A DNA stretch of 64,000 bases from Nitrospirota bacterium (lineage in GTDB: Bacteria > Nitrospirota > UBA9217). The notes under the pieces are model-generated. The model was not told where the DNA came from. It was given only the letters and a program-made list of their open reading frames with translations, and did no database searches. Below are positions 32,973 through 49,463 of this stretch, piece after piece. The position numbers and the translations under genes were made by a program. Where the stretch lies: positions 192,001 to 256,000 of the forward strand of contig CAVUHW010000020.1 in assembly GCA_963741205.1 (NCBI GenBank). Reading direction: 5' to 3'. Position 1 is the first letter of the stretch. The number at the start of each line of letters is the position of its first letter.

Positions 32973-33874
32973 TTACTCTTCTCCCACTATCCCGATGTTC
33001 CTCAGCATCCGCTCGTCCTCCCGCCAGCCCTTCTTGACCTTGACGTAGAGCTTCAGAAAAACCTTGACGCCGAGAAGTTTCTCGGAGTCCATTCTGGCCA
33101 GGGTGCCGATCTTCTTCAGCATGGCCCCGCCCTTGCCGATCAGGATCCCTTTTTGCGATTCCCGTTCCACGTAGATCACCGCATGGATGCGCGTGATGTC
33201 GGGCTCTTCCTTCATTTCCTCGATCATGACGGCCGTGGAATAGGGGATCTCTTCCTTGGTGAGCTCAAAGATCTTCTCCCGCACGATCTCGCAAACAATG
33301 AACCGCTCGGGCTGGTCCGTGAGCTGGTCATCGGGAAAATATTTCGGCCCCTGCGGCAGCCGTTTGAGAATGGCCGGGACAAGGCCGCCGAGGTCGTTCT
33401 TGAGCGCGGATACGGGGATGATCTCGGCAAAGGGATAGAGTTTGCTGTACTGCTGGATGAGCGGCAGGAGCGCATCTTTCTTGATGAGGTCGACCTTGTT
33501 GATGAGAAGAAAGACCGGCGTCTTCACCTTGGCAAGGGTCTCGATGATGAACCGGTCCCCTCCCCCGGGGGCCTCCGTGGCCTCGACGAGCATGAGGATC
33601 ACATCCACCTCGTTGTACGTCCGGAGCGCGGTCTTGCACCATGAACTCGTTCATCTTGTGCATGGGTTTATGGATGCCCGGCGTGTCCATGAACACCAGC
33701 TGCGCGCCCGGCTGCGTTCACGATGCCGAGGATCTTGTTCCGCGTGGTCTGGGGCTTGTCCGAGATGATGGCGATCTTCTCGCCCAGAAGCGCGTTCAGG
33801 AGCGTGGATTTGCCGACGTTCGGCCTGCCGATGATGGAGATGAAGCCTGACTTGAAGTTGTTTTCTTCTGACAT
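32973..33874 (-). CDS. era: GTPase Era (apparent indels near 33630-33720)
   Basis: [23 protein letters not shown], and a KH domain with REKIF and KGILIGKGG. Confidence 0.95.
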
Positions 33875-34033
33875 GGGAGACAGGATACCCGAAATGAGGG
33901 CCGCGCGCAACTGAAAAGCCGGAAGCGGGGGCCCCTTGGCCGGACTATGACCGTGCACCCGGAAGACCGCTTGTTCGCCGAAACGTCGATCGGGCTGCAA
34001 CACGCGAAAAGCTTACCTCGGATCAATTTCCAT

Positions 34034-35160: not shown

Positions 35161-36327
35161 ATGCAGATCGCAATCCTCATACTCGTAGCCGCCGTTGTTC
35201 TCATCCTCCTCTGGCTCGTCATCCAGTCGCAGAAGAAGACCGTTGACCCCACTGTCAGCCTTCTCCAGCGGGAGGTCGAATCCCTTCGAGGCCAGCTCAC
35301 CGAGTCCATGCAGCGGGGCCAGGATACGGTTAACCAGCAGCTCGGCCAGATCAACCTGCAGGTGAGTACCCAGCTCGGGAAAGTAACAGAGCAGGTGAAC
35401 ATGCAGCTCGGCCAGGCAACATCTCAGATGAACGCACGTTTGGGTCAGGTGACGGAGCAGCTCCAGAAATCAACGGGCGACCTTAACACGAGACTGGACA
35501 ATGCGGCCAAGGTCGTATCGGAAGTGAGCAAAGGACTGGGAGGCCTCGCTGAAGCGACAAAGAAGGTCTTTGACGTAGGCAAGGACATTGCGAGTCTGCA
35601 GGAGATCCTGCGTTCTCCGAAGCTCAGGGGCGGGCTGGGAGAGCTTTTTCTCGGAGACCTTCTGGCCCAGATCTTCCCGCCTGCGCACTACACGCTGCAG
35701 CACCGCTTCAAGAGCGGCGAGGCCGTGGACGCGGTCATCAGGCTCGGGCACAACCTCGTGCCGATCGACGCCAAGTTCCCGCTCGAGAACTTCAGGCGCG
35801 TCGTGGAGACGGTTACGGAGGACGAGCGAAAGACCGCCAAAAGAAAGTTCATCAGCGACGTTAAAAAGCATGTCGATGCCATCTCCGGGAAATATATTCT
35901 TCCCGACGAAGGGACTTTCGACTTCGCGCTCATGTACATCCCGGCTGAGAATGTGTACTACGAACTCATCATCAAGGACGAGGCCGTGGACACGGACAAG
36001 GCGCTCCTGAACTACGCTTTCACCAAACGGGTCATCCCCGTCTCGCCGAACAGTTTTTACGCCTACCTCCAGACCATTCTTCTCGGCCTCAAGGGCATGC
36101 ATGTCGAGGAACAGGCCCAGGATATCCTGAAAAACCTCGCGCGGCTATCGGGAGACTTTGAGCGGTTTCGGAATGATTTCGAGCTGGTGGGAAAACACCT
36201 TACCAATGTGAAGACAAAATATGACGACGCGGACAGGAAGCTGGAGAAGTTCGGCGACCGGCTTCAGTCCCTGAGCGGGACGGAGGCCGGCTCGGTTATT
36301 GAAGAAGCGACAAAGCTGCCGCTGTGA
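35161..36327 (+). CDS. rmuC: DNA recombination protein RmuC
   Basis: TM anchor, coiled coil, KLRGGLGE, IDAKFP, FALMYIPAE and VSP motifs. Confidence 0.9.
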   Translation: MQIAILILVAAVVLILLWLVIQSQKKTVDPTVSLLQREVESLRGQLTESMQRGQDTVNQQLGQINLQVSTQLGKVTEQVNMQLGQATSQMNARLGQVTEQLQKSTGDLNTRLDNAAKVVSEVSKGLGGLAEATKKVFDVGKDIASLQEILRSPKLRGGLGELFLGDLLAQIFPPAHYTLQHRFKSGEAVDAVIRLGHNLVPIDAKFPLENFRRVVETVTEDERKTAKRKFISDVKKHVDAISGKYILPDEGTFDFALMYIPAENVYYELIIKDEAVDTDKALLNYAFTKRVIPVSPNSFYAYLQTILLGLKGMHVEEQAQDILKNLARLSGDFERFRNDFELVGKHLTNVKTKYDDADRKLEKFGDRLQSLSGTEAGSVIEEATKLPL

Positions 36328-36443: not shown

Positions 36444-38093
36444 TCAGGTTGCTTTCACATCGCTCACAACGACCCTGTTCTTCCCGCTCCTTTTGGCATC
36501 GTAGAGCGCCTTGTCAGCCGCCGCGATAAAGTCCCGGATGGTCGTTGCATTCTCGGGGCAGGATGCGACCCCGACACTCACGGTAAGACTTAAACGGTGT
36601 TCATCAGCGGAGAAAACAGTGCTTTCGATTTTTTTCCTGATCCTTTCCGCGACGTATTCCCCTCCGGCGCTTCCGGTTGCGATCAGGGTCACGGCGAACT
36701 CCTCCCCCCCATAACGGAAATCGGCGTCCTCGCCCCGCGTCGAACGCAGGATGCGTTGAGCCACTTCCTTCAGGACCTGATCGCCCGCCGGATGACCGTA
36801 CGTATCGTTGACAGCCTTAAAATTATCCACATCGATCATCAGGAGGGTTAATTTCTCGCCGTAGCGCTCATAGCGCGCAAAATTCTTTTCCATGTAATTT
36901 CTGAAATGTCTCTGCGAATAGAGCCCGGTCAACTCGTCGGTGATGGCGATCTCATACAGCGCAGCATTATCCATAGCCACGGCGATATGGCCGCCCATCG
37001 CCTTGACCAGGCTAATCCCGGCAGCGTCGAAAGGGCCTCCGCTTTTTTTTGCGATGATCAAGGCAAGGCGGGCGCCGCTTTTACAGATCGGCAGGTAGAT
37101 TTCTTTTCCTTCCGCGATGACCTCTTCGCAGGTCAGCGCTCCGCTCTGCCAGGAGACGAGAACGCGCCGATCGGGGTCGTCGTCAGGAAACATCCTCCGG
37201 TCGACCTTGTTGTCGCTTTTTCTCCAAACGATCCCGCCGTATTCACTTTTCTCCTTGGGAAAAATGATATCGATCTGGTCCGCATCGAGTATCTCCCGGA
37301 TGATCTCGATAACGGCCTGCCTCGCTTCATCCATGTCGATGGTCTTGCTCAGGCGGTCCACGATCCGGTAGACCAGAGACAGTTCCGTGGATTTAAGAAC
37401 GACCTCGGTGATATATTTGTCCAAACCATTCGACAGAACCCGCGACAGGAGCGGGACGAGAATGACGAGGCACAACAGGCCGGAAGCGGCGATCATGAGT
37501 TCCACCCTGGTGACGAGTGCATACACGGGCCGTACTGAGCGGTCGATGATCAGTTTGCCGTTTATCCGGTCCGTCGCGGGATGGCAGACTTGGCAGGGCT
37601 TTTGATTATAGATGATCACAACCGTCCGCAGCACCTCTTGCCTGCCGACAGGAATGATCATGGTGGTTTCATGAGGGACGGTCACGGGACCCGTATGGCA
37701 GACCCTGCAGGATTGCTCCTGGAACCGGTCGATGAGAACACCGGTCTCGCGTTTGTCGGAAGAATACACAATCCGTCCATTCTTGTTCAGGATGAAGGCC
37801 TTCACGATGGAGGATTCGTGCGACGAGATGGTTTCGAGCGTGCGCTGTATATTGTCGGGATTGCGCACCAGCATGAGGTCGCTGAAGCTCAACCGGATGA
37901 CCTCGCCCAGTTCCCGGGTCTTGGCCTTGCTGTCGTCCAGAAGCCGAACCCGCAGAACCGCCGCAATGGAAACCATGGCGACTACCACGGTAAGCGTCGA
38001 CACGAGGAGGACGCCGATGATGATCCTCCTCTTGTACCCATAGAGCCAGTCGGAAGTCCGCTGGTCGTCGCTGTTTTGTCTGGCACTGTCCAT
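36444..38093 (-). CDS. Membrane diguanylate cyclase with a periplasmic di-heme c sensor (TM-sensor-TM-GAF-like-GGDEF)
   Basis: CRVCH and CQVCH between two TM helices; RGED I-site and GGEEF. Start uncertain. Confidence 0.85.
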   Translation of the reverse strand: MDSARQNSDDQRTSDWLYGYKRRIIIGVLLVSTLTVVVAMVSIAAVLRVRLLDDSKAKTRELGEVIRLSFSDLMLVRNPDNIQRTLETISSHESSIVKAFILNKNGRIVYSSDKRETGVLIDRFQEQSCRVCHTGPVTVPHETTMIIPVGRQEVLRTVVIIYNQKPCQVCHPATDRINGKLIIDRSVRPVYALVTRVELMIAASGLLCLVILVPLLSRVLSNGLDKYITEVVLKSTELSLVYRIVDRLSKTIDMDEARQAVIEIIREILDADQIDIIFPKEKSEYGGIVWRKSDNKVDRRMFPDDDPDRRVLVSWQSGALTCEEVIAEGKEIYLPICKSGARLALIIAKKSGGPFDAAGISLVKAMGGHIAVAMDNAALYEIAITDELTGLYSQRHFRNYMEKNFARYERYGEKLTLLMIDVDNFKAVNDTYGHPAGDQVLKEVAQRILRSTRGEDADFRYGGEEFAVTLIATGSAGGEYVAERIRKKIESTVFSADEHRLSLTVSVGVASCPENATTIRDFIAAADKALYDAKRSGKNRVVVSDVKAT

Positions 38094-38263
38094 AAGGTAT
38101 TGCCAATAGTCCCGGAGACGGGTTTGCGGCGCACCAGTCGCGGATGATGCGGTTTTCGGGAAAAGACAAAACGAAACACACAAAAAAACACGGACCGAGG
38201 ATGCTCACCTCAATCCGTGTCTATGATGATTGTTCACGGCAAACGGAACAAATGCATGGCGGT

Positions 38264-38556: not shown

Positions 38557-39413
38557 TCAACTTTTGACCACCAGAACCGGACAAGGCGCGTAGCCGATGA
38601 CCTTTTCAGTCACGCTCCCCATGAGGAGCCGGCGAAGGCCCGTCCGCCCGTGTGAGCCCAGGACGATCATATCGGCCTTCTGTTCCTGGGCCAGGTTGTT
38701 GACCGCCTGGTACGCTTCAGCCTCGCCCACAAAGGTCTCGGTTTTTACCCCTGCGGCCTCGGCCTGTTTCTTCACATCGGCCACGAAGCCTTTGGCCTTG
38801 CGCACAAGGTCCTCCACCGCGCTGGGGGCCTCCGCGTAGAATTCCGCGGGAACGTCCACGACCGACAGGACCCTCAGCTCCCCGCCGTAGGCCTTGGCAA
38901 AGGAGATCGCGCGCTCCGCCGCGGCCGCGCTGTACTTGGAGCCGTCCGTCGCAAGGACGATCGTTTTCCATCCCACCTTCGTGCCGTTCGGGAACAACGA
39001 GCACGTCCCGTTGGGTGTGCCCGATGACCCTCGCCGTCACAACCCCCACGAGCATGTTCGCGACAGGGCGAAGCCCCCGCCTTCCCATGATGATGAGATC
39101 GCAATTCTCGGCGTCGGCCAGATCGACGATGCGCTCGTAGATTTCCCCTTCTTCGCAGACGGTCTTGATGAGCGCCCGTTCCGATTCCGCCAGCTTCCGC
39201 GCCTCATTCAGGGCGTCATCACAGGGCTTTCGAAGGGAGGCCCTGATGTCCTTGACCCCGAGTGTCTCCATCTCGCCTTCGTAGGGCGGGACCACGGACG
39301 TTACGGTAATCCAGCACTTCTCGTCAACAGCAAACCGGAACGCCTGCTGAGAGCGCGTTCCGGCTTGATTCAGAACCATCGACCGCTACAAGGATCTTTC
39401 TATATTTCCCCAT
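38557..39413 (-). CDS. Tandem-domain universal stress protein (frameshifted)
   Basis: MGKYRKILVAVDGS, DLIIMGRRG, IVLATDGS and GSHGRTGLRRLLMGSVTEKV. Confidence 0.85.
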
Positions 39414-40481
39414 GCTCCAAGGCTCCCGCTGCAAGCTGCAGTCTCTCTGCCTGGCGTCCCTGCCACATGGCACGGAGAACGATGAAAGCGCCGATCAGCA
39501 ATGCGAAGATCATTATAGCAAAGCTGGCGGTCTTGAGCAAGGATACGGTGCCGTCGCCGAGCTTGTCGATCAGCCCGAGCTGGGCAAGGTATACCGGTAC
39601 CATGAGGCCGCGGGAAAAGAGCACGATCACCATGATCAATCCCATCACGACCTTGATCATGAAGGGCTTCACATAGGTGGTGCCGATGGCTCCGAGCTGG
39701 ATGCCGAAGAGCGAGCCGGCGAGGATGATCATGGCGAGCCGGATGTCCACCATGCCGTGGAGCGCATACTTGAGCGAACCGCCCAGGCCCATGACAAAGG
39801 CGATAACCAGCTCCGTGGCCGAAGCCATGAGGCTCGGCGCGCCGAGAACGTAGATCATCGCGGGGACGCCGATGAAACCGCCAACCGCGATCGTGGCGGC
39901 CAGCATGCCCGTGGCAAAACCGAAAGGAATAGTGAAGAGGATGGATACGCGGGCATTGATGCTCTTGAAATAGACCATGGTGCCCGGGATATTGATGGAC
40001 TGGACCCACTTTGCCAGTTTTCCGGTCTTTTCCGCTGTCTGGTATTGCCGGACTTGTAGGTCTTCCAGGCGTCATAGAGAACAAAACCGCCGACCGTAGC
40101 GAGGATCACGACAAAGGCCACGCTGACATAGAGGTTCGAACCTGCGTCGCCGAAGGCCTTCTTGATGTTTTCCTGAATCTGGGCGCCGTAGAGCACCCCC
40201 GCCTCGGCCGATACGCCGAGAACGATGCCGAGTTTCACGTCCACCTGCCCGTATTTGGCCCGCTTGAGCGCGCCCACGAGGGCTTTGGGAAACTTGTGGC
40301 ACATGTTGCTGGCCACTGCCATGAGCCCCGGGACGCCGAGGCTCATCATGCCCGGAGTGAGTACGAATGCGCCGCCGGAACCGATAAATCCGCTGACGAG
40401 GCCGCCGACAAAGCCAACCCCGAACAGGTAGAGGATCGTCATAGCATCAAGATTGATGAAATTCGCCGCAAGGTCATGCAT
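39400..40481 (-). CDS. Sulfite exporter TauE/SafE (TSUP) family transporter (indel near 40035)
   Basis: GLVSGFIGSGGAFVLTP and ATIAVGGFIGVPAMIY half-repeats; multiple TM helices. Confidence 0.85.
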
Positions 40482-40482
40482 C

Positions 40483-40734
40483 TTATTTTACCTCCTTTTT
40501 CTTCTTCGAAGCCTCGACGCCGAGCACGGTCCAGAAATGGCCGGTGAATGTGCCGTGAAAATAAGAAAAGACAAATGCCGTGATGATCGGCAACAGCGCA
40601 TACAGTCCGCCTTTCGCGAAGTTGCTGTTGATCAGGTCCTGCTTCGCCAGAAGGGTCGCATAGAGCGCTACGGAAATGATGCCCATAACGATCATCGTGC
40701 CCACCGGCTTCTTCCTTGTGGTGCTTTGTGCCAT
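40483..40734 (-). CDS. Small two-TM membrane protein upstream of TauE
   Basis: 83 aa, two hydrophobic segments, FSYFHGTFTGHFW; AAGGAGG RBS. Confidence 0.7.
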   Translation of the reverse strand: MAQSTTRKKPVGTMIVMGIISVALYATLLAKQDLINSNFAKGGLYALLPIITAFVFSYFHGTFTGHFWTVLGVEASKKKKEVK

Positions 40735-40766
40735 GATAATTCCTCCTTGGATTGATTTAAAAAACT

Positions 40767-40834
40767 GTTTCGAGTCTCGGGTTTATGGTCTCGAGTTAAG
40801 GCGATCACAACTCGAGACTTGAAACTCATAGACT
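40767..40834. repeat. Heptamer-periodic inverted-repeat element (GT(T/C)TCGA units)
   Basis: GTTTCGA-GTCTCGG-GTTTATG-GTCTCGA-GTT ... AACTCGAGAC-TTGAAAC; 10-bp perfect inner stem. Confidence 0.7.
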
Positions 40835-40846
40835 TTCCCTGTAAAC

Positions 40847-41354
40847 TTACGCCCTGGCCCCGTCCATGACCACGACGAGCGGGCATTTCAGTTTCCGCCA
40901 CAATTCTGAAAGCTCTTTGTCATGCTTGTTGCAGTCGTCGTCGAGGCTGGCCGGAGGACTCGATGACCGCGAACAGAATTTCTTTTTCACTGTTCGTATA
41001 TTCGATGATCTGCTGTTTGAGGCAACCCGACCGTGGAACGAGCCGGTGCTTGACTCCCTTCCGCCGCGAGTTCAGCCTCGAACGCCTCGAGGCGCCGGGT
41101 CGCCGCGCTTGCCCGTCGGCACGGGGCGAACTGACAGTAAAGGATGTCGAGCTGCGCGTTGATCCGCTTGGCTGTATTCAGGGCGTATTTCAGTGTCTTC
41201 GCGTCGATCTGTCCCGCTTTGAGCCGAGCAGCACGCGCCTTGATTCCGTCATAAGAGAACGCGCGGTTTCCACATCCCCCTCTTCGGCAAACGAGGCCGC
41301 TGTCAAGCGCATGTTCCACAGCTTCATCATCTTCTTAAATTTAGTCGTTTCCAT
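40847..41354 (-). CDS. USP-like protein with an N-terminal AASFAEEG motif (frameshifted)
   Basis: Reconstructed METTKFKK...AASFAEEGDVETAR...LKYALNTAKRINAQLDILY...LKCPLVVV. Confidence 0.6.
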
Positions 41355-41410
41355 GATCCCTCTTTTAACACTCTGCCGCACTCTGAATTTCTCTGTACTC
41401 TGACTCTAAC

Positions 41411-41587
41411 TTAGTCGGCGCGCAGTTCTTTTCTATTCGCCGGTCTCTGGTAGTCATGCATGGAAGGCCGATCGGTCTTTCTGGGTCTGTCTTCATTCAT
41501 GATCTCGCGCGCCATCTCGAATTCACCTTCTTCGGCGAACGCCGCCGCCACCATGGCTGTTTCGAATTTCTTAAATATGTTCTTCAT
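41411..41587 (-). CDS. Small protein with an AAAFAEEGE motif
   Basis: 58 aa from ATG 41587 with AAGGAGGG RBS; first gene after the sigma54 promoter. Confidence 0.7.
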   Translation of the reverse strand: MKNIFKKFETAMVAAAFAEEGEFEMAREIMNEDRPRKTDRPSMHDYQRPANRKELRAD

Positions 41588-41625: not shown

Positions 41626-41642
41626 TACAAGCTCCGTGCCAA
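41626..41642 (-). promoter_or_regulatory. Sigma54 -24/-12 promoter
   Basis: Minus strand TTGGCACGGAGCTTGTA (TGGCAC-N5-TTGTA); IHF-like TAACACATTGAAA at 41658-41670. Confidence 0.7.
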
Positions 41643-41701: not shown

Positions 41702-41845
41702 CGTTTTAAAACAATGCTTTTAGGAGTAGTGGTGTGATCGTTTTAAAATGCAATGCCTTTTCTCGATAACCGTTTACCCATTTGAAAATACAATAATGTT
41801 TTATTGGGTGTTGCAATAGAATTGAAAACGTTGTAAAATGCAACC
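41702..41845. promoter_or_regulatory. Candidate enhancer (UAS) sites for a sigma54 activator
   Basis: CGTTTTAAAACAATG, CGTTTTAAAATGCAATG, ATTTGAAAATACAAT and CGTTGTAAAATGCAAC: variants of a GTTGCA-N3-TGCAAC dyad, 60-200 bp upstream of the promoter. Confidence 0.55.
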
Positions 41846-41917: not shown

Positions 41918-43920
41918 ATGAAATTTTTCAAAAAATCAGAAGACGACCACCGGGATGCCCTCATAGAAGAACTGCGCCAGAAGATATCGTCGGCGCTGAT
42001 GCCGGATGCCGTCCTGAAGATCGCCGAACAGGAACTGGACGTCATTTCGCGAAGATCAGCCCCTCGTCCGCCGAATACACCATCGGCATCACCTACCTTG
42101 ATTATCTCCTGTCTCTTCCCTGGAACAGGAAAACGGAAGACAATCTCGATCTTGCGCGCGCGGAACGGATCATGAACGAAGAACCATTACGGCCTGGACA
42201 AGATTAAGGAGCGGGTGCTGGAACACCTGGCCGTCAAGGTGCTCATGATGAGCAAAAAAGCGCGCATTCTGATCGTCGATGACGAGGAGATCGCCCGCAA
42301 AAACCTCGCCCACGTGCTCACAAAAGAAGAATACGACGTGGTCACGGCCGCTGACGGCGAGAGTGCGCTCAAGGCAACTGGAGGCTGAGGAGTTCGACGT
42401 GGTGCTCACGGATCTTCGCATGGGCAGGATCGACGGGATGGACCTTCTGGACCGTATCAAGGTCCGCGTTTCCGGAGACCCGGGTCATCATGGTGACGGG
42501 CTTCGCCACGGTCCCGTCAGCCATCGAGGCCATGCAGAAGGGCGCCTTCCATTACATCGCAAAGCCTTTCAAGCTGGACGAGGTGCGGGCGGCGATCAAA
42601 CTGGCGCTGGAGAAAAAGACGATCAGGGCGAACACGAAAGGCTCGGTCCTCTGTTTCGCCGGCCCCCCGGGGACGGGAAAGACATCCCTGGGCCGGTCTA
42701 TTGCCCGCGCCCTCGGCCGCAAGTTCACGCGCATCAGCCTGGGCGGCCTCAAGGACGAGGCGGACATCCGCGGACACCGGCGCACCTACGTGGGGGCTAA
42801 ACCCGGCAGGGTGATCGAGGAGATCCGCCGCGTGGAATCGGCCAATCCCGTGATCATGCTCGACGAGTTGGACAAGATCGGCCGGGACTTCAAAGGTGAC
42901 CCCGAGTCGGCCCTGCTCGAGGTGCTCGACCCGGAGCAAAACTGCGCCTTCGTGGACCATTATCTGGACGCCCCCTTCGACCTGTCGAGCGTTATGTTCA
43001 TCCTCACCGCGAACATGCTCGATACGGTCCCCGCCCCGCTCCGCGACCGCATGGAGGTCATCGAGTTCTCCGGCTACACCCAGGAGGAAAAGTCGCATAT
43101 CGCGAGCCGGTTCCTCTGCCCAAAACAGGTCCGGGAGAAGGGGCTGTCCCCCGACGATGTCTCCTTCACCGACGAAGCCATCACAAAGATCATCCAGGAA
43201 TACACGCGCGAGGCAGGGATAAGGAACCTCGAACGGAAGATCGCGACCATCTGCCGCAAAATAGCGAAGGAGTCCGTCGAAAGCCGGGGCGCGCCGCAGC
43301 CGGTCCGGATTACCCCGGAAGCCGTGGAGCGCTATCTCGGCAGGCGCAGGTACCACTTCGACGTCATCGAGGAACAGGACCGGGTCGGCGTGGCCACGGG
43401 CCTCGTACGCACCGAAACCGGCGGCGAGATCATCTTCGTCGAGGCCGCGAAAATGAAAGGCACGAAGGAACTGATCATCACCGGATCACTCGGCGACGTC
43501 ATGCGCGAATCGGCGCAGGCGGCGCTGTCCTACATCCGGAGCAACTCCGGCGAGTTCGGCATCGCGGACGATTTTTTTGAATACCACGATATCCACATCC
43601 ATGTGCCCTCGGGCGCGATCCAGAAGGACGGCCCTTCGGCGGGCGTCACTATTCTCGTCGCCCTTGCCTCTCTCCTGACCCGCCGGCCGGCCCGGCGCGA
43701 CATAGCCATGACCGGCGAAATCACCCTCACCGGACGGATACTCCCTGTGGGAGGCATCCGCGAAAAGGTGCTTGCCGCGAAACGCGCGATGGTCAGGACC
43801 ATGATTGTGCCCCTGCGCAACCGCGACGACGTGGAGGAACTGACCGACGACGTGAAGGCCGGCATCGAAATCCGACTCGCCGACACCGTCAAGGATGTCG
43901 TGAGCGCGGTGCTGATGTAA
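41918..43920 (+). CDS. lon: Lon (S16) protease lacking the N-terminal domain, with a receiver domain inserted in the AAA+ module (about 4 indels in the 5' third)
   Basis: [27 protein letters not shown], then REC, then [47 protein letters not shown] (Ser) and GGIREK (Lys). Confidence 0.9.
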
Positions 43921-43927
43921 GATACGG

Positions 43928-44017
43928 AAGCAGTTGCAGGCGCATAGTTCAGCGCACAGGTAGTAAAACCATGCCAGCGTGACTAACTCTGCTACACTGC
44001 TACTTGCTACTTGCTTT
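43928..44017. repeat. Degenerate heptamer-periodic element (TTGCTAC units)
   Basis: CTGCTAC-A-CTGCTAC-TTGCTAC-TTGCTTT with a loosely complementary GCAG/GTAG-rich left arm. Confidence 0.5.
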
Positions 44018-44027
44018 AAGTATAACC

Positions 44028-45608
44028 ATGTTCAACTACCAGCCCAGCATACGACAGAAGATCACCCTCGGCTACTACGCGATCGTCGCGATGATTATCG
44101 GCCTGACCATGTTCACCTTCCTCGAACTGCGCTTCATCGAACAGAAGATCATCTTCGGCGAGACCATCTCGGAATTTTTCGACACGACCCTTGAGCTCCG
44201 TCGCTTCGAGAAGAACTTTTTTCTGTATGAAGAGCGATCGGACTACGACGAGAACATAAATTATATTAACAAGGCGCAAGACATCATCGATCGCAACGTC
44301 CGCGGGTTCAGCACACTCGCCTCGTCCGGGCAAATCTCCCTGCTCCAGGTCAGCCTCAAGAACTACCGGAATCTTATGGAGCTTTATGCGGTAACGGACG
44401 AACGCTACGCTGCCCGCAGGAACATTCTGGCAGGGAAAATACGGCTGGCCGGCAAGGACATCATCGCCATAGCGGAAGAGATCTCGAAGACCGAGCGCAA
44501 AAGCCTGCAGCAGCTCCTGAGCAGCTCCCAGCGCATTCTCATCATCTCCATCGTCATCCTTTCCGTCTCCGTTATCAGCATCGGTCAGATACTCTCGCGC
44601 ATGGTGGTGAGGCCGCTGAAGTCCCTGGAAGAAAGCATGGGGGTCATCGCGGAGGGAAAGTTCGAGCGCGTGGCCATCGATTCGAAGGACCGGGAGATCG
44701 TCTCGCTCACCAAGGCCTTCAATAAGATGCTGAAGCAACTGGAGCTGCATGAGCGGCACCTGATCCAGTCGGAGAAGCTCGCTTCCCTGGGCACGCTGCT
44801 CTCCGGCGTAGCGCACGAGTTGAACAACCCCCTCTCGAACATATCCTCCTCGAACCAGATATTGATGGAGGAGCTCAAAGAGGGCCTGGGGTCCGGGATC
44901 GCGGGCCGGGATAAAGCGGCAAGCGCGGAGGAGAGCGCGGCAGGGATCGCCCCCGACCTTCGTTTCTCGTCTCTCGACCCTGAGTTCATCCTGGAGCTGA
45001 GCAGCCAGATCAACGACCAGACCGACCGCGCGCGTAACATCGTCCGCTCGCTCCTGGATTTTTCACGGGACCGTGAGTTTAAAAAGGAGCGGGTGTCCCT
45101 CCGGAAGATCATCGAAGAGACGATTCAATTCGTCAAGGGCCAGGTGCCGACAAATGTCGCGGTCACGCTCGCCGTTCCCGACGACATCGTCATTGTCGCC
45201 GACAAGCAGCGCATGCAACAGGTTTTTCTGAACCTGATCAAAAACGCCATAGAGGCAATCACGTCAAACGTGGGATTGGTCTCGATCAAGGCGGAGAAAC
45301 GGCGGGCGATGGACGACTTCGACGACGAAAAGATCGGCATCTCCAACTACCTCAAGTACCGCGGCAAATGCACCCTCGATCAGGACACCGTCGACATAGA
45401 AATCCGGGACAACGGATCCGGCATCCCCCTCGACCTCGTCCCCAAGGTATTCGACCCCTTTTTCACGACCAAGGACGTCGGCAAGGGCTCCGGGCTCGGA
45501 CTCTTCATCGTCCACGAGATCATCGAGGAGCATGACGGCTGCATTGCCGTGGACAGCGAGCCGGGAAAAGGAACGGCGTTCCTGATCCGGCTGCCGCGTA
45601 AGGAGTAA
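44028..45608 (+). CDS. Sensor histidine kinase (TM-periplasmic-TM-HAMP-HisKA-HATPase)
   Basis: SEKLASLGTLLSGVAHELNNPL, NLIKNA, DNGSGI, FFTTK and GSGLGL. Confidence 0.95.
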   Translation: MFNYQPSIRQKITLGYYAIVAMIIGLTMFTFLELRFIEQKIIFGETISEFFDTTLELRRFEKNFFLYEERSDYDENINYINKAQDIIDRNVRGFSTLASSGQISLLQVSLKNYRNLMELYAVTDERYAARRNILAGKIRLAGKDIIAIAEEISKTERKSLQQLLSSSQRILIISIVILSVSVISIGQILSRMVVRPLKSLEESMGVIAEGKFERVAIDSKDREIVSLTKAFNKMLKQLELHERHLIQSEKLASLGTLLSGVAHELNNPLSNISSSNQILMEELKEGLGSGIAGRDKAASAEESAAGIAPDLRFSSLDPEFILELSSQINDQTDRARNIVRSLLDFSRDREFKKERVSLRKIIEETIQFVKGQVPTNVAVTLAVPDDIVIVADKQRMQQVFLNLIKNAIEAITSNVGLVSIKAEKRRAMDDFDDEKIGISNYLKYRGKCTLDQDTVDIEIRDNGSGIPLDLVPKVFDPFFTTKDVGKGSGLGLFIVHEIIEEHDGCIAVDSEPGKGTAFLIRLPRKE

Positions 45609-45615
45609 TCTATTC

Positions 45616-46977
45616 ATGCAAGAAACCGCAAAGCTACTCATTGTCGATGACGAACGGATCGCGCTCCGGAACCTCGAGCATGTGATGAAAAAAGAAGGCT
45701 ACGAAGTGACCGGCACGCAGAGCGGGCCGAACGCCCTCAAGCTCCTCGAAGATCAGCAATTCGATGTGGTTCTTACCGACCTCCGCATGGAAAAGGTCGA
45801 CGGCATGCAGATCCTCAGGAAAACCCGCGAGCTCTACCCGGACACGGAAGTGATCATGATTACCGGATATGCGACCCTCGATTCGGCGGTTGAGTCGATG
45901 AAACACGGCGCATTCTACTATATCGCGAAACCCTTCAAACTCGAGGAAGTGCGCAAGGTCGTTCAGGAGGCTTTGCATAAGGTCCGTCTCAAGATGGAGA
46001 ACCGCCACCTCCGGGAGCAGCTCGACAGCTACCAGGGCAAGGTCAAGATCATTACTCAGGACCCGTCCATGCAGAAACTCCTCGAGACAGCCCGGCAGAT
46101 CGCGCCCACGGACTGCAATGTACTTATCACCGGCGAGAGCGGCACGGGCAAGGAGCTCTTCGCCCGGTTCATTCACCTGAACAGCAATCGCGCAACCGGC
46201 CCCTTTTTCGCCATCAACTGCGGCGCCTTTACCGAGGAACTCCTGTCGAACGAGCTTTTCGGCCACGAAAAGGGCGCTTTTACCGGGGCGAACAATATGA
46301 AGAAAGGCCTGATCGAGATGGCGTCGGGGGGCACGCTGTTCATGGATGAGGTCACGGAGATGCCGTCGTCCATGCAGGTAAAGCTCCTCCGGGTCATCCA
46401 GGAAAAGGAGGTCCTTCGCGTCGGCGGCACCGAGCCGACCAAGGTGGACGTGCGGCTCGTCGCTGCCACGAACCGGGACATTCACGATTCCATGAAGACC
46501 GGCTCTTTCCGGCAGGACCTCTACTTCCGCCTGAACGTCGTCTCGCTCCGCATCCCGCCCCTCGCGGAACGGAGGGACGACATTCCCCTCCTCTCCTACT
46601 ATTTTCTGAAGAAATACTCCGTGCTCATGAAAAAAGAGGTCAAGGAGATCGCCGAAGATGTGATCGCCCTGCTCATGAACTATGACTTTCCGGGAAACGT
46701 GCGCGAACTCGAGAACATCATGGAGCGCGGGGTGGCGCTCTCGAACGGCCAGATCATCGAGACGGGCCATCTGCCCGAGGACCTGCGGGAGCTCAGCATC
46801 AAGACTTTTCGTAAAAAGGAGGGCAAGATCCCGTCTCTCGATGAGCAGGAAGAGTCCTATATCAAGTGGGTTCTCGCCGAGGTGGGCGGCAACAAGACCC
46901 TCGCCTCGCAGATCCTCGGCATCGACCGCGTCTCGCTGTGGCGAAAACTCAAGAAGTACGGGCTTGAAGCGGAATAG
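45616..46977 (+). CDS. NtrC-family sigma54-dependent response regulator
   Basis: REC, GESGTGKE, ELFGHEKGAFTGA, FRQDLYFRL, FPGNVREL and a Fis-type HTH. Confidence 0.95.
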   Translation: MQETAKLLIVDDERIALRNLEHVMKKEGYEVTGTQSGPNALKLLEDQQFDVVLTDLRMEKVDGMQILRKTRELYPDTEVIMITGYATLDSAVESMKHGAFYYIAKPFKLEEVRKVVQEALHKVRLKMENRHLREQLDSYQGKVKIITQDPSMQKLLETARQIAPTDCNVLITGESGTGKELFARFIHLNSNRATGPFFAINCGAFTEELLSNELFGHEKGAFTGANNMKKGLIEMASGGTLFMDEVTEMPSSMQVKLLRVIQEKEVLRVGGTEPTKVDVRLVAATNRDIHDSMKTGSFRQDLYFRLNVVSLRIPPLAERRDDIPLLSYYFLKKYSVLMKKEVKEIAEDVIALLMNYDFPGNVRELENIMERGVALSNGQIIETGHLPEDLRELSIKTFRKKEGKIPSLDEQEESYIKWVLAEVGGNKTLASQILGIDRVSLWRKLKKYGLEAE

Positions 46978-47355: not shown

Positions 47356-47547
47356 ATGGGTAGAGGTCTCTTTCAACCGATGCATCTGATTCTTATCCTC
47401 GTGATCGTCCTGATCATCTTCGGTCCGGGAAAACTCCCCCAGCTTGGCGAAAGTCTCGGGAAAAGCATCAGGGGCTTCAAGAAGGCCATGTCCGAGAAAG
47501 ATGATGAGCAGGTAATTGCAGCGAAGAAGGAAGAGAAAAAACCGTAG
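47356..47547 (+). CDS. tatA: Twin-arginine translocase TatA/E subunit (second copy)
   Basis: [28 protein letters not shown]; GGAGGA RBS. Confidence 0.9.
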   Translation: MGRGLFQPMHLILILVIVLIIFGPGKLPQLGESLGKSIRGFKKAMSEKDDEQVIAAKKEEKKP

Positions 47548-47995
47548 ATACTTGTCACCCGAACCGCGATACCCCATAGTCGCTATTCGAGAGGACCTTT
47601 TTTTACCGTCATCCCTGGCTTGCAAGCCTGCCGCTCGTATGCTGTCTTCAACGCTAATAACCGCCCCCCTTGCGGATGCCGCTGCAGTCAAGCCTCCTGT
47701 AGACGAACAATGAATACCGTACATCTCTCGACCCATGATTTATTTCTAAACCCCTTCTATTTTTTTTCTATCACCGCCTTTTCCGCCGAATCACGCAGAA
47801 TAAATAATTTTCAATAAAAAAATGATTACTAGGGAATTATAGTCTAAAAAATTGGCTATAATTAGCAGAAAGTGCTTCGGGGAAGACAAGTGGCGGTCAA
47901 ATTTAATATTTTTTTTGGTAATAACCATTTTTCTAGCTAATACGAGCTACGTGAAAAAAGGGCTTCTAGATCGCTCTTTGTTCAGGGGACGTGCC

Positions 47996-48733
47996 ATGAT
48001 CGTAAAGGTAGCTATGCTTTCGGCTACCATAGCCATGTTCCTTTCTTTTCATTCATTCTCCTTTGCCTATGAAACCCGAGAGGTCAAAGACGGCGGGAGC
48101 ATCGAAGGAGTGGTTGAGTATTCGGGGGCGACCATCCCGAAGGACCCTACGATGACGTTAACTTCCGAGACAGCGTACTGCGGCAAGAGCCTGCCCGCGG
48201 AAAGATATCTGATCAAGGACCGGAAAGTCAAGAATGCGGTTGTCTATTTGGTCAGGATCGAAGCGGGTAAAAAGGTCCCCAACGAGCCGGTCATCATAAC
48301 GAATACAAAATGTAAATTTGAACCCCACGTTTCCGTTGGGTTCAAGGGTAATCTTTTCACAGCAAAAAACGATGATCCGGTTCTGCACCAATTCGATATT
48401 CATGCCGCGATAGGCGGCGCTGAAATCTATAGTGTAAGTCTTCATGAACAAGGGTCCTCGGTGACAAAGACCCTCCCGAAGACCGGCCTTATGGAACTGA
48501 GTTGTTATGTCCATCCGTGGCAGCGCGCATATGTCTACATTTTCGACCATCCCTATGCAACGGTCACCGACGAAAATGGCTCGTTTGTCATGAAAGAAGT
48601 CCCGCCTGGAACATACACGGTCGCGGTCTGGCACGAATCACTTGGAATCAATGAAATCAGGGATGTCAAAGTGGAAAGCTTGAAGGCCAGCATCATCAGA
48701 CTAAAATACACCCATGAAGTAAAACTTCAATAA
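47996..48733 (+). CDS. Secreted cupredoxin-like / carboxypeptidase-regulatory-like domain protein, paralog 1
   Basis: Signal peptide, GSIEGVV, KCKFEPHV, NDDPVLH, CYVHPWQ and VPPGTYTVAVWHE. Confidence 0.75.
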   Translation: MIVKVAMLSATIAMFLSFHSFSFAYETREVKDGGSIEGVVEYSGATIPKDPTMTLTSETAYCGKSLPAERYLIKDRKVKNAVVYLVRIEAGKKVPNEPVIITNTKCKFEPHVSVGFKGNLFTAKNDDPVLHQFDIHAAIGGAEIYSVSLHEQGSSVTKTLPKTGLMELSCYVHPWQRAYVYIFDHPYATVTDENGSFVMKEVPPGTYTVAVWHESLGINEIRDVKVESLKASIIRLKYTHEVKLQ

Positions 48734-48748: not shown

Positions 48749-49463
48749 ATGAAGAGGATGATCGTTGCAGCAGGTATTCTTGTCGATATTGTTTTCCTTT
48801 TCCCCGGCTGCTTTCGCCTATGAGACGATTGAAGTAAAAAACGGCGGAAGCATCGAGGGGGTGGTGGAGTACACGGGAGCCACGGTACCGAAAGACCAGA
48901 TGGTTAAGCTCAGTTCCGAGACCAAGTACTGCGGCCAGAGCATGCCGGCTGAAAAGTACCTTATCAAGGACAAGAAAATCAAGAACGTGGTTGTATATAT
49001 AGAAGAGATCAAGGCCGGCAAGGCGGTCCCAGCCGAGCCCGTTACGCTTACGAACCTGAAATGCGCCTTCGAGCCGCATGTTGCCGTGGGATTCAAGGGA
49101 AGCAAGTTCATCGAGCGCAACGACGACCCGATATTCCATAACATCCATACGTATATCAACGGGAAGACCATGTATAACATCGGACTTCCCGAAAAAGGTT
49201 CATCGGTCACAAAGCCCCTGACCAAGGCGGGAATCATCGAAGTGACCTGCGACAGCCACCCCTGGATGCACGGCTATCTCTACGTGTCTGAGAACCCCTA
49301 TGCCGCGGTCACGAACGATACGGGCGAGTTTTCGCTCAAAGATGTCCCCCCGGGCACCTATACCGTCGAGGCCTGGCATGAGGCGCTCGGCAAAACAAAA
49401 ATAACAAGCGTCAAGGTGGAAAGCGGCAAGGCAAGCAAGGTAACGCTGGAGTATAAGAAGTAA
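48749..49463 (+). CDS. Secreted cupredoxin-like / carboxypeptidase-regulatory-like domain protein, paralog 2 (indel in the signal peptide)
   Basis: AAGGAGG RBS before ATG 48749; KCAFEPHV, NDDPIFHNIH, CDSHPWM and VPPGTYTVEAWHE. Confidence 0.75.

Follow-up and report, generated by a model that had tools for sequence, protein, structure and literature searches.

This analysis concerns a gene cluster in a 64,000-nucleotide stretch of a Nitrospirota draft genome (contig CAVUHW010000020.1, positions 192,001 to 256,000 of the forward strand), hereafter called the window, in which a lon gene containing a receiver domain (REC) lies next to genes of a two-component system. The product of the lon-REC gene (41918-43920, plus strand) is a LonA-type protease without the usual N-terminal domain, and its REC lies ahead of the Walker A motif. 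It is followed on the same strand by genes for a membrane histidine kinase (44028-45608; HAMP, HisKA and HATPase_c by Pfam, with an alternative TTG start at 44004) and an NtrC-type sigma54 activator (45616-46977; REC, Sigma54_activat with a GAFTGA motif, AAA lid and HTH_8, again by Pfam). A divergent operon encodes, in order from lon, a 58-amino-acid protein, a 203-amino-acid protein, a small membrane protein, a TauE/SafE exporter and a tandem universal stress protein (USP).

A receiver domain within the AAA+ module of Lon

No single open reading frame (ORF) covers 41918-43920; the region consists of a 476-amino-acid ORF (42490-43920) and, upstream of it, shorter pieces that lie in other frames. 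On this ORF, Pfam identified AAA (residues 54-194, E-value 1.4e-24), Lon_lid (residues 216-266, 1.4e-23) and Lon_C (4e-81). The Response_reg profile was matched piecewise, with its positions 1-37 on the piece 42215-42385, positions 36-67 on the piece 42279-42797 and positions 75-111 on the first 37 residues of the 476-amino-acid ORF. Since the end of the receiver, AAA, Lon_lid and Lon_C are all located on this ORF, the junction between receiver and Walker A lies within one open frame, as stated in a preliminary description of this DNA. That description had also joined frames to read the complete protein, which proved necessary: the gene runs through three reading frames with four breaks.

For the whole protein, we used the residue numbering of P0002, an intact homologue of 665 amino acids that is 92% identical. 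Its domain order is a helical N-terminus (1-111), REC (116-226; PF00072 with 108.8 bits against a cut-off of 30.2), AAA (243-383), Lon_lid (405-451) and Lon_C (463-664). In the window, the helical N-terminus (41918-42250) comprises the region of the three-helix bundle and the AAA+ helix alpha0 (HYGL...LAVKVLMM), equivalent to residues 12-105 of the B. subtilis Lon construct. The REC, with its acidic pair, phospho-accepting Asp, Thr and Lys-Pro, occupies 42263-42600 according to Pfam, alignment and fold model. Pfam and alignment place the AAA+ ATPase (Walker A GPPGTGKT, Walker B LDELD, pore loop TYVGA) together with the Lon lid at 42649-43287, and the S16 protease domain Lon_C with the Ser-Lys dyad at 43309-43914. 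No Pfam match to the LON substrate-binding domain (LON_substr_bdg, PF02190) was obtained on the window pieces or on the homologues P0002, P0065 and P0106, and about 88 residues precede the HYGL motif in REC-Lon proteins compared with 308-373 in canonical loci. The TIGR00763 model (endopeptidase La) scores 740 bits on P0002, in two stretches, and exceeds the curated NCBI cut-off of 608, which is why sources give such proteins the plain name "endopeptidase La", under which the family sits in genome annotations.

A phmmer comparison with B. subtilis Lon (3m6a) aligned query residues 18-111 with chain residues 12-105 and query residues 236-661 with chain residues 104-527. The REC is therefore a clean insertion of about 124 residues at a position where B. 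subtilis Lon has none. When the solved structures were searched with phmmer, no chain matched the REC and Lon regions together; all full-length Lon chains matched in separate stretches on either side of the REC. The insertion is also evident from the spacing between HYGL and Walker A in 80 loci, the best from a species-level genome collection: it measures 158 residues in 51 of them and 32 in six canonical LonA loci, and in the remaining 23 the two motif patterns did not both match.

An AlphaFold2 model based on 42 homologues (mean predicted local distance difference test score 82.1) contains N-terminal helices at residues 5-26, 30-45, 51-65, 78-88 and 93-111 and a complete (beta-alpha)5 REC at residues 115-231, from strand 115-119 to helix 218-231. 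In this model, the REC sits between helix 93-111, which in line with published LonA domain boundaries we take to be the first helix of the AAA+ fold, and the first AAA+ strand (242-246). The top Foldseek matches of the model are chains of LonA hexamers. Across the 42 aligned homologues (52-87% identity), the acidic pair D120/D121, the phospho-acceptor D164, T192 and K214-P215 of the REC are invariant, and so are Walker A, Walker B (D314 and E315), S572 and K615. We conclude that the window gene encodes a LonA-type protease without the usual N-terminal domain and with a complete REC between the first AAA+ helix and Walker A. The preliminary description had placed the REC inside the AAA+ module just before Walker A, had read the receiver residues, Walker motifs and Ser-Lys dyad as intact and had found the substrate-recognition domain missing; the domain order, alignment and spacing bear it out on all of these points.

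Such proteins, for which the preliminary description had proposed a search, are abundant as intact homologues of about 665 amino acids. When 5.8 billion proteins were searched with the 476-amino-acid ORF, 118 of the 120 best matches carried Response_reg, AAA and Lon_C, and the other two were short fragments (465 and 502 amino acids). Most of the 120 are 664-676 amino acids long and 78-92% identical to the query. Of the 80 best loci, which come mostly from Nitrospirota, the phylum that includes Thermodesulfovibrio, and partly from Desulfobacterales, at least 59 have the REC inside lon. When 400 other genomes of the phylum were sampled, 65 gave a full-length match to a query running from alpha0 through the REC to Walker A; among them, genomes of one to three contigs have lon-REC frames of 670-674 amino acids. 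A second branch with about 53% identity consists of Desulfobulbaceae (the P0122 group), including the cultured Desulfobulbus propionicus DSM 2032; clustering of the family at 50% identity leaves P0122 as one full-length representative, plus fragments. These results support a genuine and conserved fusion of REC and Lon.

Long Lon-like proteins with top scores (889-1675 amino acids, four to seven matched stretches) were considered as further REC-Lon fusions and rejected, as Pfam identified tandem AAA+ modules and no REC. In P0121, P0124-P0127, P0129-P0132, P0139, P0142, P0144, P0146, P0149 and P0150, two to three tandem AAA+ modules precede a single Lon_C; one of these proteins also has ankyrin repeats and one a LON N-domain. 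Loci L065-L085 were likewise rejected as REC-less short forms: contig-end fragments aside, their frames of 772-978 amino acids have the size of canonical LonA, and six show the spacing of 32 residues given above.

Partner genes and the divergent operon

We examined the gene neighbourhood at the 59 loci with a REC inside lon. The order lon > kinase > NtrC on one strand, as in the window, is present at 23 loci; the pair NtrC < kinase is divergent from lon at ten, and at two both genes are 4-6 kb away from it. Both partners are thus found near lon at 35 loci, in agreement with the linkage proposed in the preliminary description, and a kinase orthologue adjoins lon at 33. Ten loci have a single partner above thresholds and 14 neither, six of the latter with less than 1.5 kb of downstream flank. 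A partner-type REC lies near lon at 45 loci. In the divergent arrangement, lon stands beside the genes for the 58-amino-acid protein, the 203-amino-acid protein, TauE and USP, on their strand (L032, L033, L042, L049, L050, L052 and others), and at these ten loci the protease looks like a member of the output operon. At L037, L047, L048, L051 and L068, an NtrC-type gene directly follows lon (130-584 nt) and no kinase orthologue was found above thresholds. The window genome also contains rpoN.

The REC of P0002 is 56.6% identical (144 bits) to the REC of the neighbouring NtrC-type regulator, which ranks first among 77 REC matches in the genome of the window, ahead of the next paralogue with 48% (114 bits). 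The close resemblance noted in the preliminary description is thereby given numbers. In a quick maximum-likelihood tree of 23 of the 45 locus pairs together with 50 RECs of the own genome, Lon-RECs and partner NtrC-RECs form one clade (support of 97 in the Shimodaira-Hasegawa-like approximate likelihood ratio test), apart from 49 other RECs of the same genome. Within it, the NtrC-RECs form a monophyletic group (100), and the two sub-trees branch in mirrored order. Judged from these sequences, no REC is closer to that of Lon than the REC of the partner NtrC, and the reverse holds as well.

All genes of the divergent operon are on the minus strand. The first (41411-41587) encodes the 58-amino-acid protein, with the motif AAAFAEEGEFE and a basic tail; the second (40850-41369) encodes a homologue of the 203-amino-acid protein with the same N-terminal motif and contains at least three indels. 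For neither of the two could a known family be identified in Pfam. They are followed by the intact gene of the small membrane protein (83 amino acids, 40483-40734), the TauE/SafE-family anion exporter gene (39403-40481, one single-base deletion near 40041) and the tandem USP gene (38560-39485, single-base insertions near 38993 and 39350). The last two were assigned by Pfam on intact orthologues, which agrees with the TauE and USP linkage guessed in the preliminary description. The motif AAAFAEEGEFETA is common to the 58-amino-acid protein and the N-terminus of the 203-amino-acid protein, both in the window and at L008 (9553-9726 and 8985-9596). Cluster look-ups for the two returned clusters of hypothetical proteins, one of them with Usp in 20% of its members, a lead and no more. 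Genes of this kind are also present within about 1 kb upstream of lon at five loci where neither a kinase nor an NtrC orthologue was seen (L022, L025, L026, L029 and L036, the last with the 203-amino-acid gene only); four of the five have short flanks. A predicted complex of full-length REC-Lon with the 58-amino-acid neighbour scored 0.00 against a mark of 0.32 and speaks neither for nor against an interaction.

The divergent operon is preceded by a sigma54-like -24/-12 element, TGGCACGGAGCTTGTA (41626-41641, minus strand), in which the -12 part reads TTGT instead of TTGC. It is the sole one-mismatch match to the sigma54 consensus in the window, where the total number of matches is not above chance, and its core is kept in all 15 of the 15 aligned intergenic regions. 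About 100 nt upstream of this element, a conserved box with invariant columns, GTTTTAAAATGCAAT (41738-41754), repeats a second box at 41827-41844. It is a candidate activator-binding site, and the NtrC partner would bind these boxes. No sigma54 promoter was found ahead of lon on the plus strand; a conserved sigma70-like promoter (TTGCAA-17-TAAAAT, 41811-41839, plus strand) fits instead and overlaps a conserved palindrome, GTTG-N7-CAAC, at 41830-41844.

Further out, the USP gene is followed by genes for a GGDEF diguanylate cyclase whose N-terminal region is long (36444-38183, minus strand) and an RmuC-family protein (35161-36327, plus strand). On the other side of the cluster, a 63-amino-acid ORF (47356-47547) may encode a TatA/E-like protein, and two adjacent plus-strand genes (47852-48733 and 48765-49463) encode paralogues that look secreted and have a weak CarboxypepD_reg-like domain.

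Frame breaks in the lon-REC gene

A tblastn search of the window with P0002 matched frames 2, 1, 2, 0 and 1 in order. To locate the breaks, we aligned the DNA with four intact orthologues (L006, L008, L009 and L010). All four breaks are small insertions in the window, with five extra bases in total between 42044 and 42467: two bases at 42044-42045 and one base each at 42181, 42375 and 42467. Contigs of relatives, obtained at low depth from four public runs of two studies and 85-98% alike, lack the insertions at three of the four sites; one omits two bases at 42052, and others omit one base at 42379/42380 and one at 42467/42468, while 42181 lies outside their cover. The neighbouring USP, TauE and 203-amino-acid genes contain about seven further single-base indels within 3.5 kb (two insertions, one deletion and at least three indels, respectively, all within 38993-41330). 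Because the breaks lie in a patch of indels that also affects these three genes, they are most likely assembly errors, and the organism therefore probably has an intact lon-REC gene of 665 codons. The broken reading frame should not be taken as biology.

Two other explanations of the broken gene have to be weighed against assembly errors. If response regulator and lon genes had been joined by misassembly, a 5' part in disrupted frames, as seen here, could be expected; yet the REC-Walker A junction lies within one ORF and the order recurs in hundreds of independent intact genes, so that we regard a chimera as already refuted and give it practically no weight. Alternatively, lon-REC and the divergent TauE/USP operon could be true pseudogenes decaying in this strain next to an intact kinase and NtrC gene. 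The distribution of the indels would suit such decay: about 11 fall on lon, TauE, USP and the 203-amino-acid gene, whereas the kinase and NtrC genes are free of them. None of the public sequencing runs screened proved to contain reads of the strain itself (the best shares 0.24 of sampled words). The contigs mentioned above come from relatives and not from this strain, which also counts against our preference for assembly errors. Nevertheless, once the frames are corrected there are no in-frame stops or large deletions, and the pieces are 80-94% identical to their orthologues, as are intact neighbours. An unrelated gene (32976-33931, minus strand), orthologous to a same-genus gene of 359 amino acids, is split over two frames as well. 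Compared with 75 kb of the same-genus genome G221, only ten genes matched, all within 30.5-47 kb, and three of them, including this unrelated gene, are split over frames; the 5' pieces of lon fell below the 70% filter of this comparison, and with lon there are four. Other assemblies of few contigs break lon-REC at different places (L012, L058, L063, L073, G209, G230 and G321), and the window genome itself is an 84%-complete draft of 50 contigs. Decay of the genes in this strain is therefore unlikely, and assembly errors remain our preferred explanation.

A three-component module and its proposed mechanism

The combination of genes is known from Desulfovibrio vulgaris. Rajeev et al. (2011; PMC3333781) describe DVU3303-3305, a lon-protease response regulator, a kinase and a sigma54 regulator, as a "three-component system" responsive at the gene level to high pH, heat and stationary phase, propose that phosphorylation activates the protease, and list orthologues with a lon-protease regulator in Thermodesulfovibrio, Thioalkalivibrio and Dechloromonas. 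The same regulon appears in a table of Kazakov et al. (2015; PMC4641369), and Trotter et al. (2023; PMC10102598) report that each pair of the three genes has a cofitness above 0.9 and name the anion transporter DVU3299 as a target. The likeness to the window covers one operon (41918-46977 in the window) that combines a lon-protease response regulator with a single histidine kinase and a response regulator of the sigma54 type. It also covers a divergent operon, sigma54-dependent in D. vulgaris and preceded by a sigma54-like element in the window, for an anion transporter together with membrane, hypothetical and UspA-type proteins. A difference is the GAFSGA motif of DVU3305 (PMC4641369) compared with GAFTGA in the window. 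The novelty that the preliminary description had implied for a Lon regulated in this way hence does not hold, such a set of genes having been published in 2011 (PMC3333781). The window copy is a further member of a known, biochemically unexplored family, and the finding was not first made here.

On the combined evidence, the window rather likely holds a copy of a conserved stress module with three components, namely a membrane histidine kinase, an NtrC-type regulator and a second response regulator with Lon as its output. This Lon is a LonA that lost its N-terminal substrate-binding domain and kept the three-helix bundle, with the REC wedged between the AAA+ helix alpha0 and strand beta1/Walker A by linkers of about three and ten residues. 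According to the mechanism that we propose, one kinase would phosphorylate both RECs, and a common kinase is plausible from the kinship of the receivers. Phosphorylated NtrC would switch on the divergent operon, and the phosphorylated REC could use its two short linkers to act on alpha0 and the nucleotide-binding strand, altering ATPase activity or ring assembly. Such phospho-gating of Lon is plausible, and we favour activation by analogy with NtrC1/DctD-type REC-AAA+ proteins, which have the nearest solved receivers. With the N-domain lost, the substrate range would probably be narrow, restricted to few specific substrates; the co-regulated 58- and 203-amino-acid proteins with their common AAFAEEGE motif are candidates. 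The most specific version of this mechanism, in which the kinase directly gates the AAA+ protease, the phosphorylated REC switching ring assembly or ATP hydrolysis so that proteolysis of a narrow set fires only together with sigma54 transcription in response to the same signal, is one that we put forward tentatively, at somewhat short of even chances. If true, the ten loci with lon beside the output-operon genes on the same strand would make an AND gate.

A number of observations weigh against a common kinase, the module or the gating. Eight of the 59 loci have neither a kinase nor an NtrC orthologue despite at least 4 kb of flank. Between the Lon REC and the partner NtrC REC, identity within the 45 loci (0.529) equals that between loci (0.527); this rules out concerted evolution, indicates that the likeness is old and not maintained by gene conversion, and gives no extra sign of co-evolution. 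The REC tree is a quick one, with 23 of the 45 pairs. The preliminary description had considered the specificity residues of helix 1 to be alike, which stands for nine of 13 positions in the family consensus (and for 12 of 13 in the beta5-alpha5 stretch around Lys-Pro) and fails at two fixed non-conservative differences, E/R and R/L, so that an equal kinase preference of the two RECs is not assured. The match to the DVU3303-type system rests on operon content and the taxon list in PMC3333781, and the cofitness of DVU3303 with DVU3304 and DVU3305 could be a polar effect, lon being the first gene. Finally, no enzymology, phosphotransfer, ATPase, proteolysis or structural study of any REC-Lon was found in the full-text literature searched, which does not include subscription journals.

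The receiver might also serve a purpose other than switching proteolysis on and off. It could tune the phosphorylation of NtrC by acting as a phosphate sink, or it could be a module for docking to the NtrC REC, so that Lon degrades or sequesters the activator in a feedback loop. Either role would suit two RECs that are 53-57% identical and nearly the same in their beta5-alpha5 consensus, and docking would provide a route of substrate selection to a Lon that lacks the usual substrate-binding domain and needs another one. A pure sink, on the other hand, would have no need for the conserved ATPase and protease sites, and the very short linkers hold the REC against the ATPase in the model, as would suit allosteric control. 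Removal of NtrC moreover predicts opposite phenotypes for lon and ntrC, whereas the D. vulgaris mutants of all three genes have one fitness pattern (PMC10102598), with polarity as a possible cause. We therefore consider these roles fairly unlikely. Far less probable is a pseudo-receiver that merely stands in, independently of phosphorylation, for the lost N-domain: it would account for loci without a nearby kinase, such as the eight with long flanks, and is opposed by the invariance of D120, D121, D164, T192 and K214 in 42 sequences down to 52% identity, as pseudo-receivers usually lose these residues of the phospho-acceptor site.

Regulated proteolysis by AAA+ proteases is normally under the control of separate adaptors such as RssB and CpdR. 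A Lon polypeptide with its own intact receiver would couple the sensing of a signal to the degradation of proteins in one step and would, if this is true, be the first case of a response regulator forming the motor of a protease. The family is large, conserved and present in cultivable strains (D. vulgaris, according to PMC3333781, and Desulfobulbus propionicus DSM 2032).

Compared with canonical LonA from E. coli, B. subtilis (3m6a) and Meiothermus taiwanensis (4ypl/7fd4), REC-Lon shares the AAA+ module, the Lon lid and the S16 Ser-Lys protease, with 39-41% identity and a TM-score of up to 0.87 normalised to the target. It differs in lacking the LAN/PUA-like N-domain and the long helix and in carrying a 124-residue REC where canonical LonA has an alpha0-beta1 loop of about ten residues. 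The window genome encodes two such canonical proteins in addition, with open frames of 822 and 796 amino acids.

The closest solved RECs are those of the NtrC1/DctD-type sigma54 activators (1ny5, 1zy2 and 3dzd; E-values 7e-20 to 4e-18), in which the REC also lies directly ahead of an AAA+ ATPase and controls ring assembly. In contrast to these proteins, the Lon REC lies inside the AAA+ fold, after alpha0, and lacks the long coiled-coil linker (alpha5 ends at residue 231 and beta1 starts at 242), and the ATPase is the motor of a protease instead of a transcription activator. Control of an AAA+ protease by two-component phosphorylation is a feature of RssB (ClpXP/sigmaS) and CpdR (ClpXP, Caulobacter), whose NCBIfam models match the Lon REC weakly. 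Both, however, are separate adaptors acting on ClpXP, whereas in REC-Lon the receiver belongs to the protease polypeptide.

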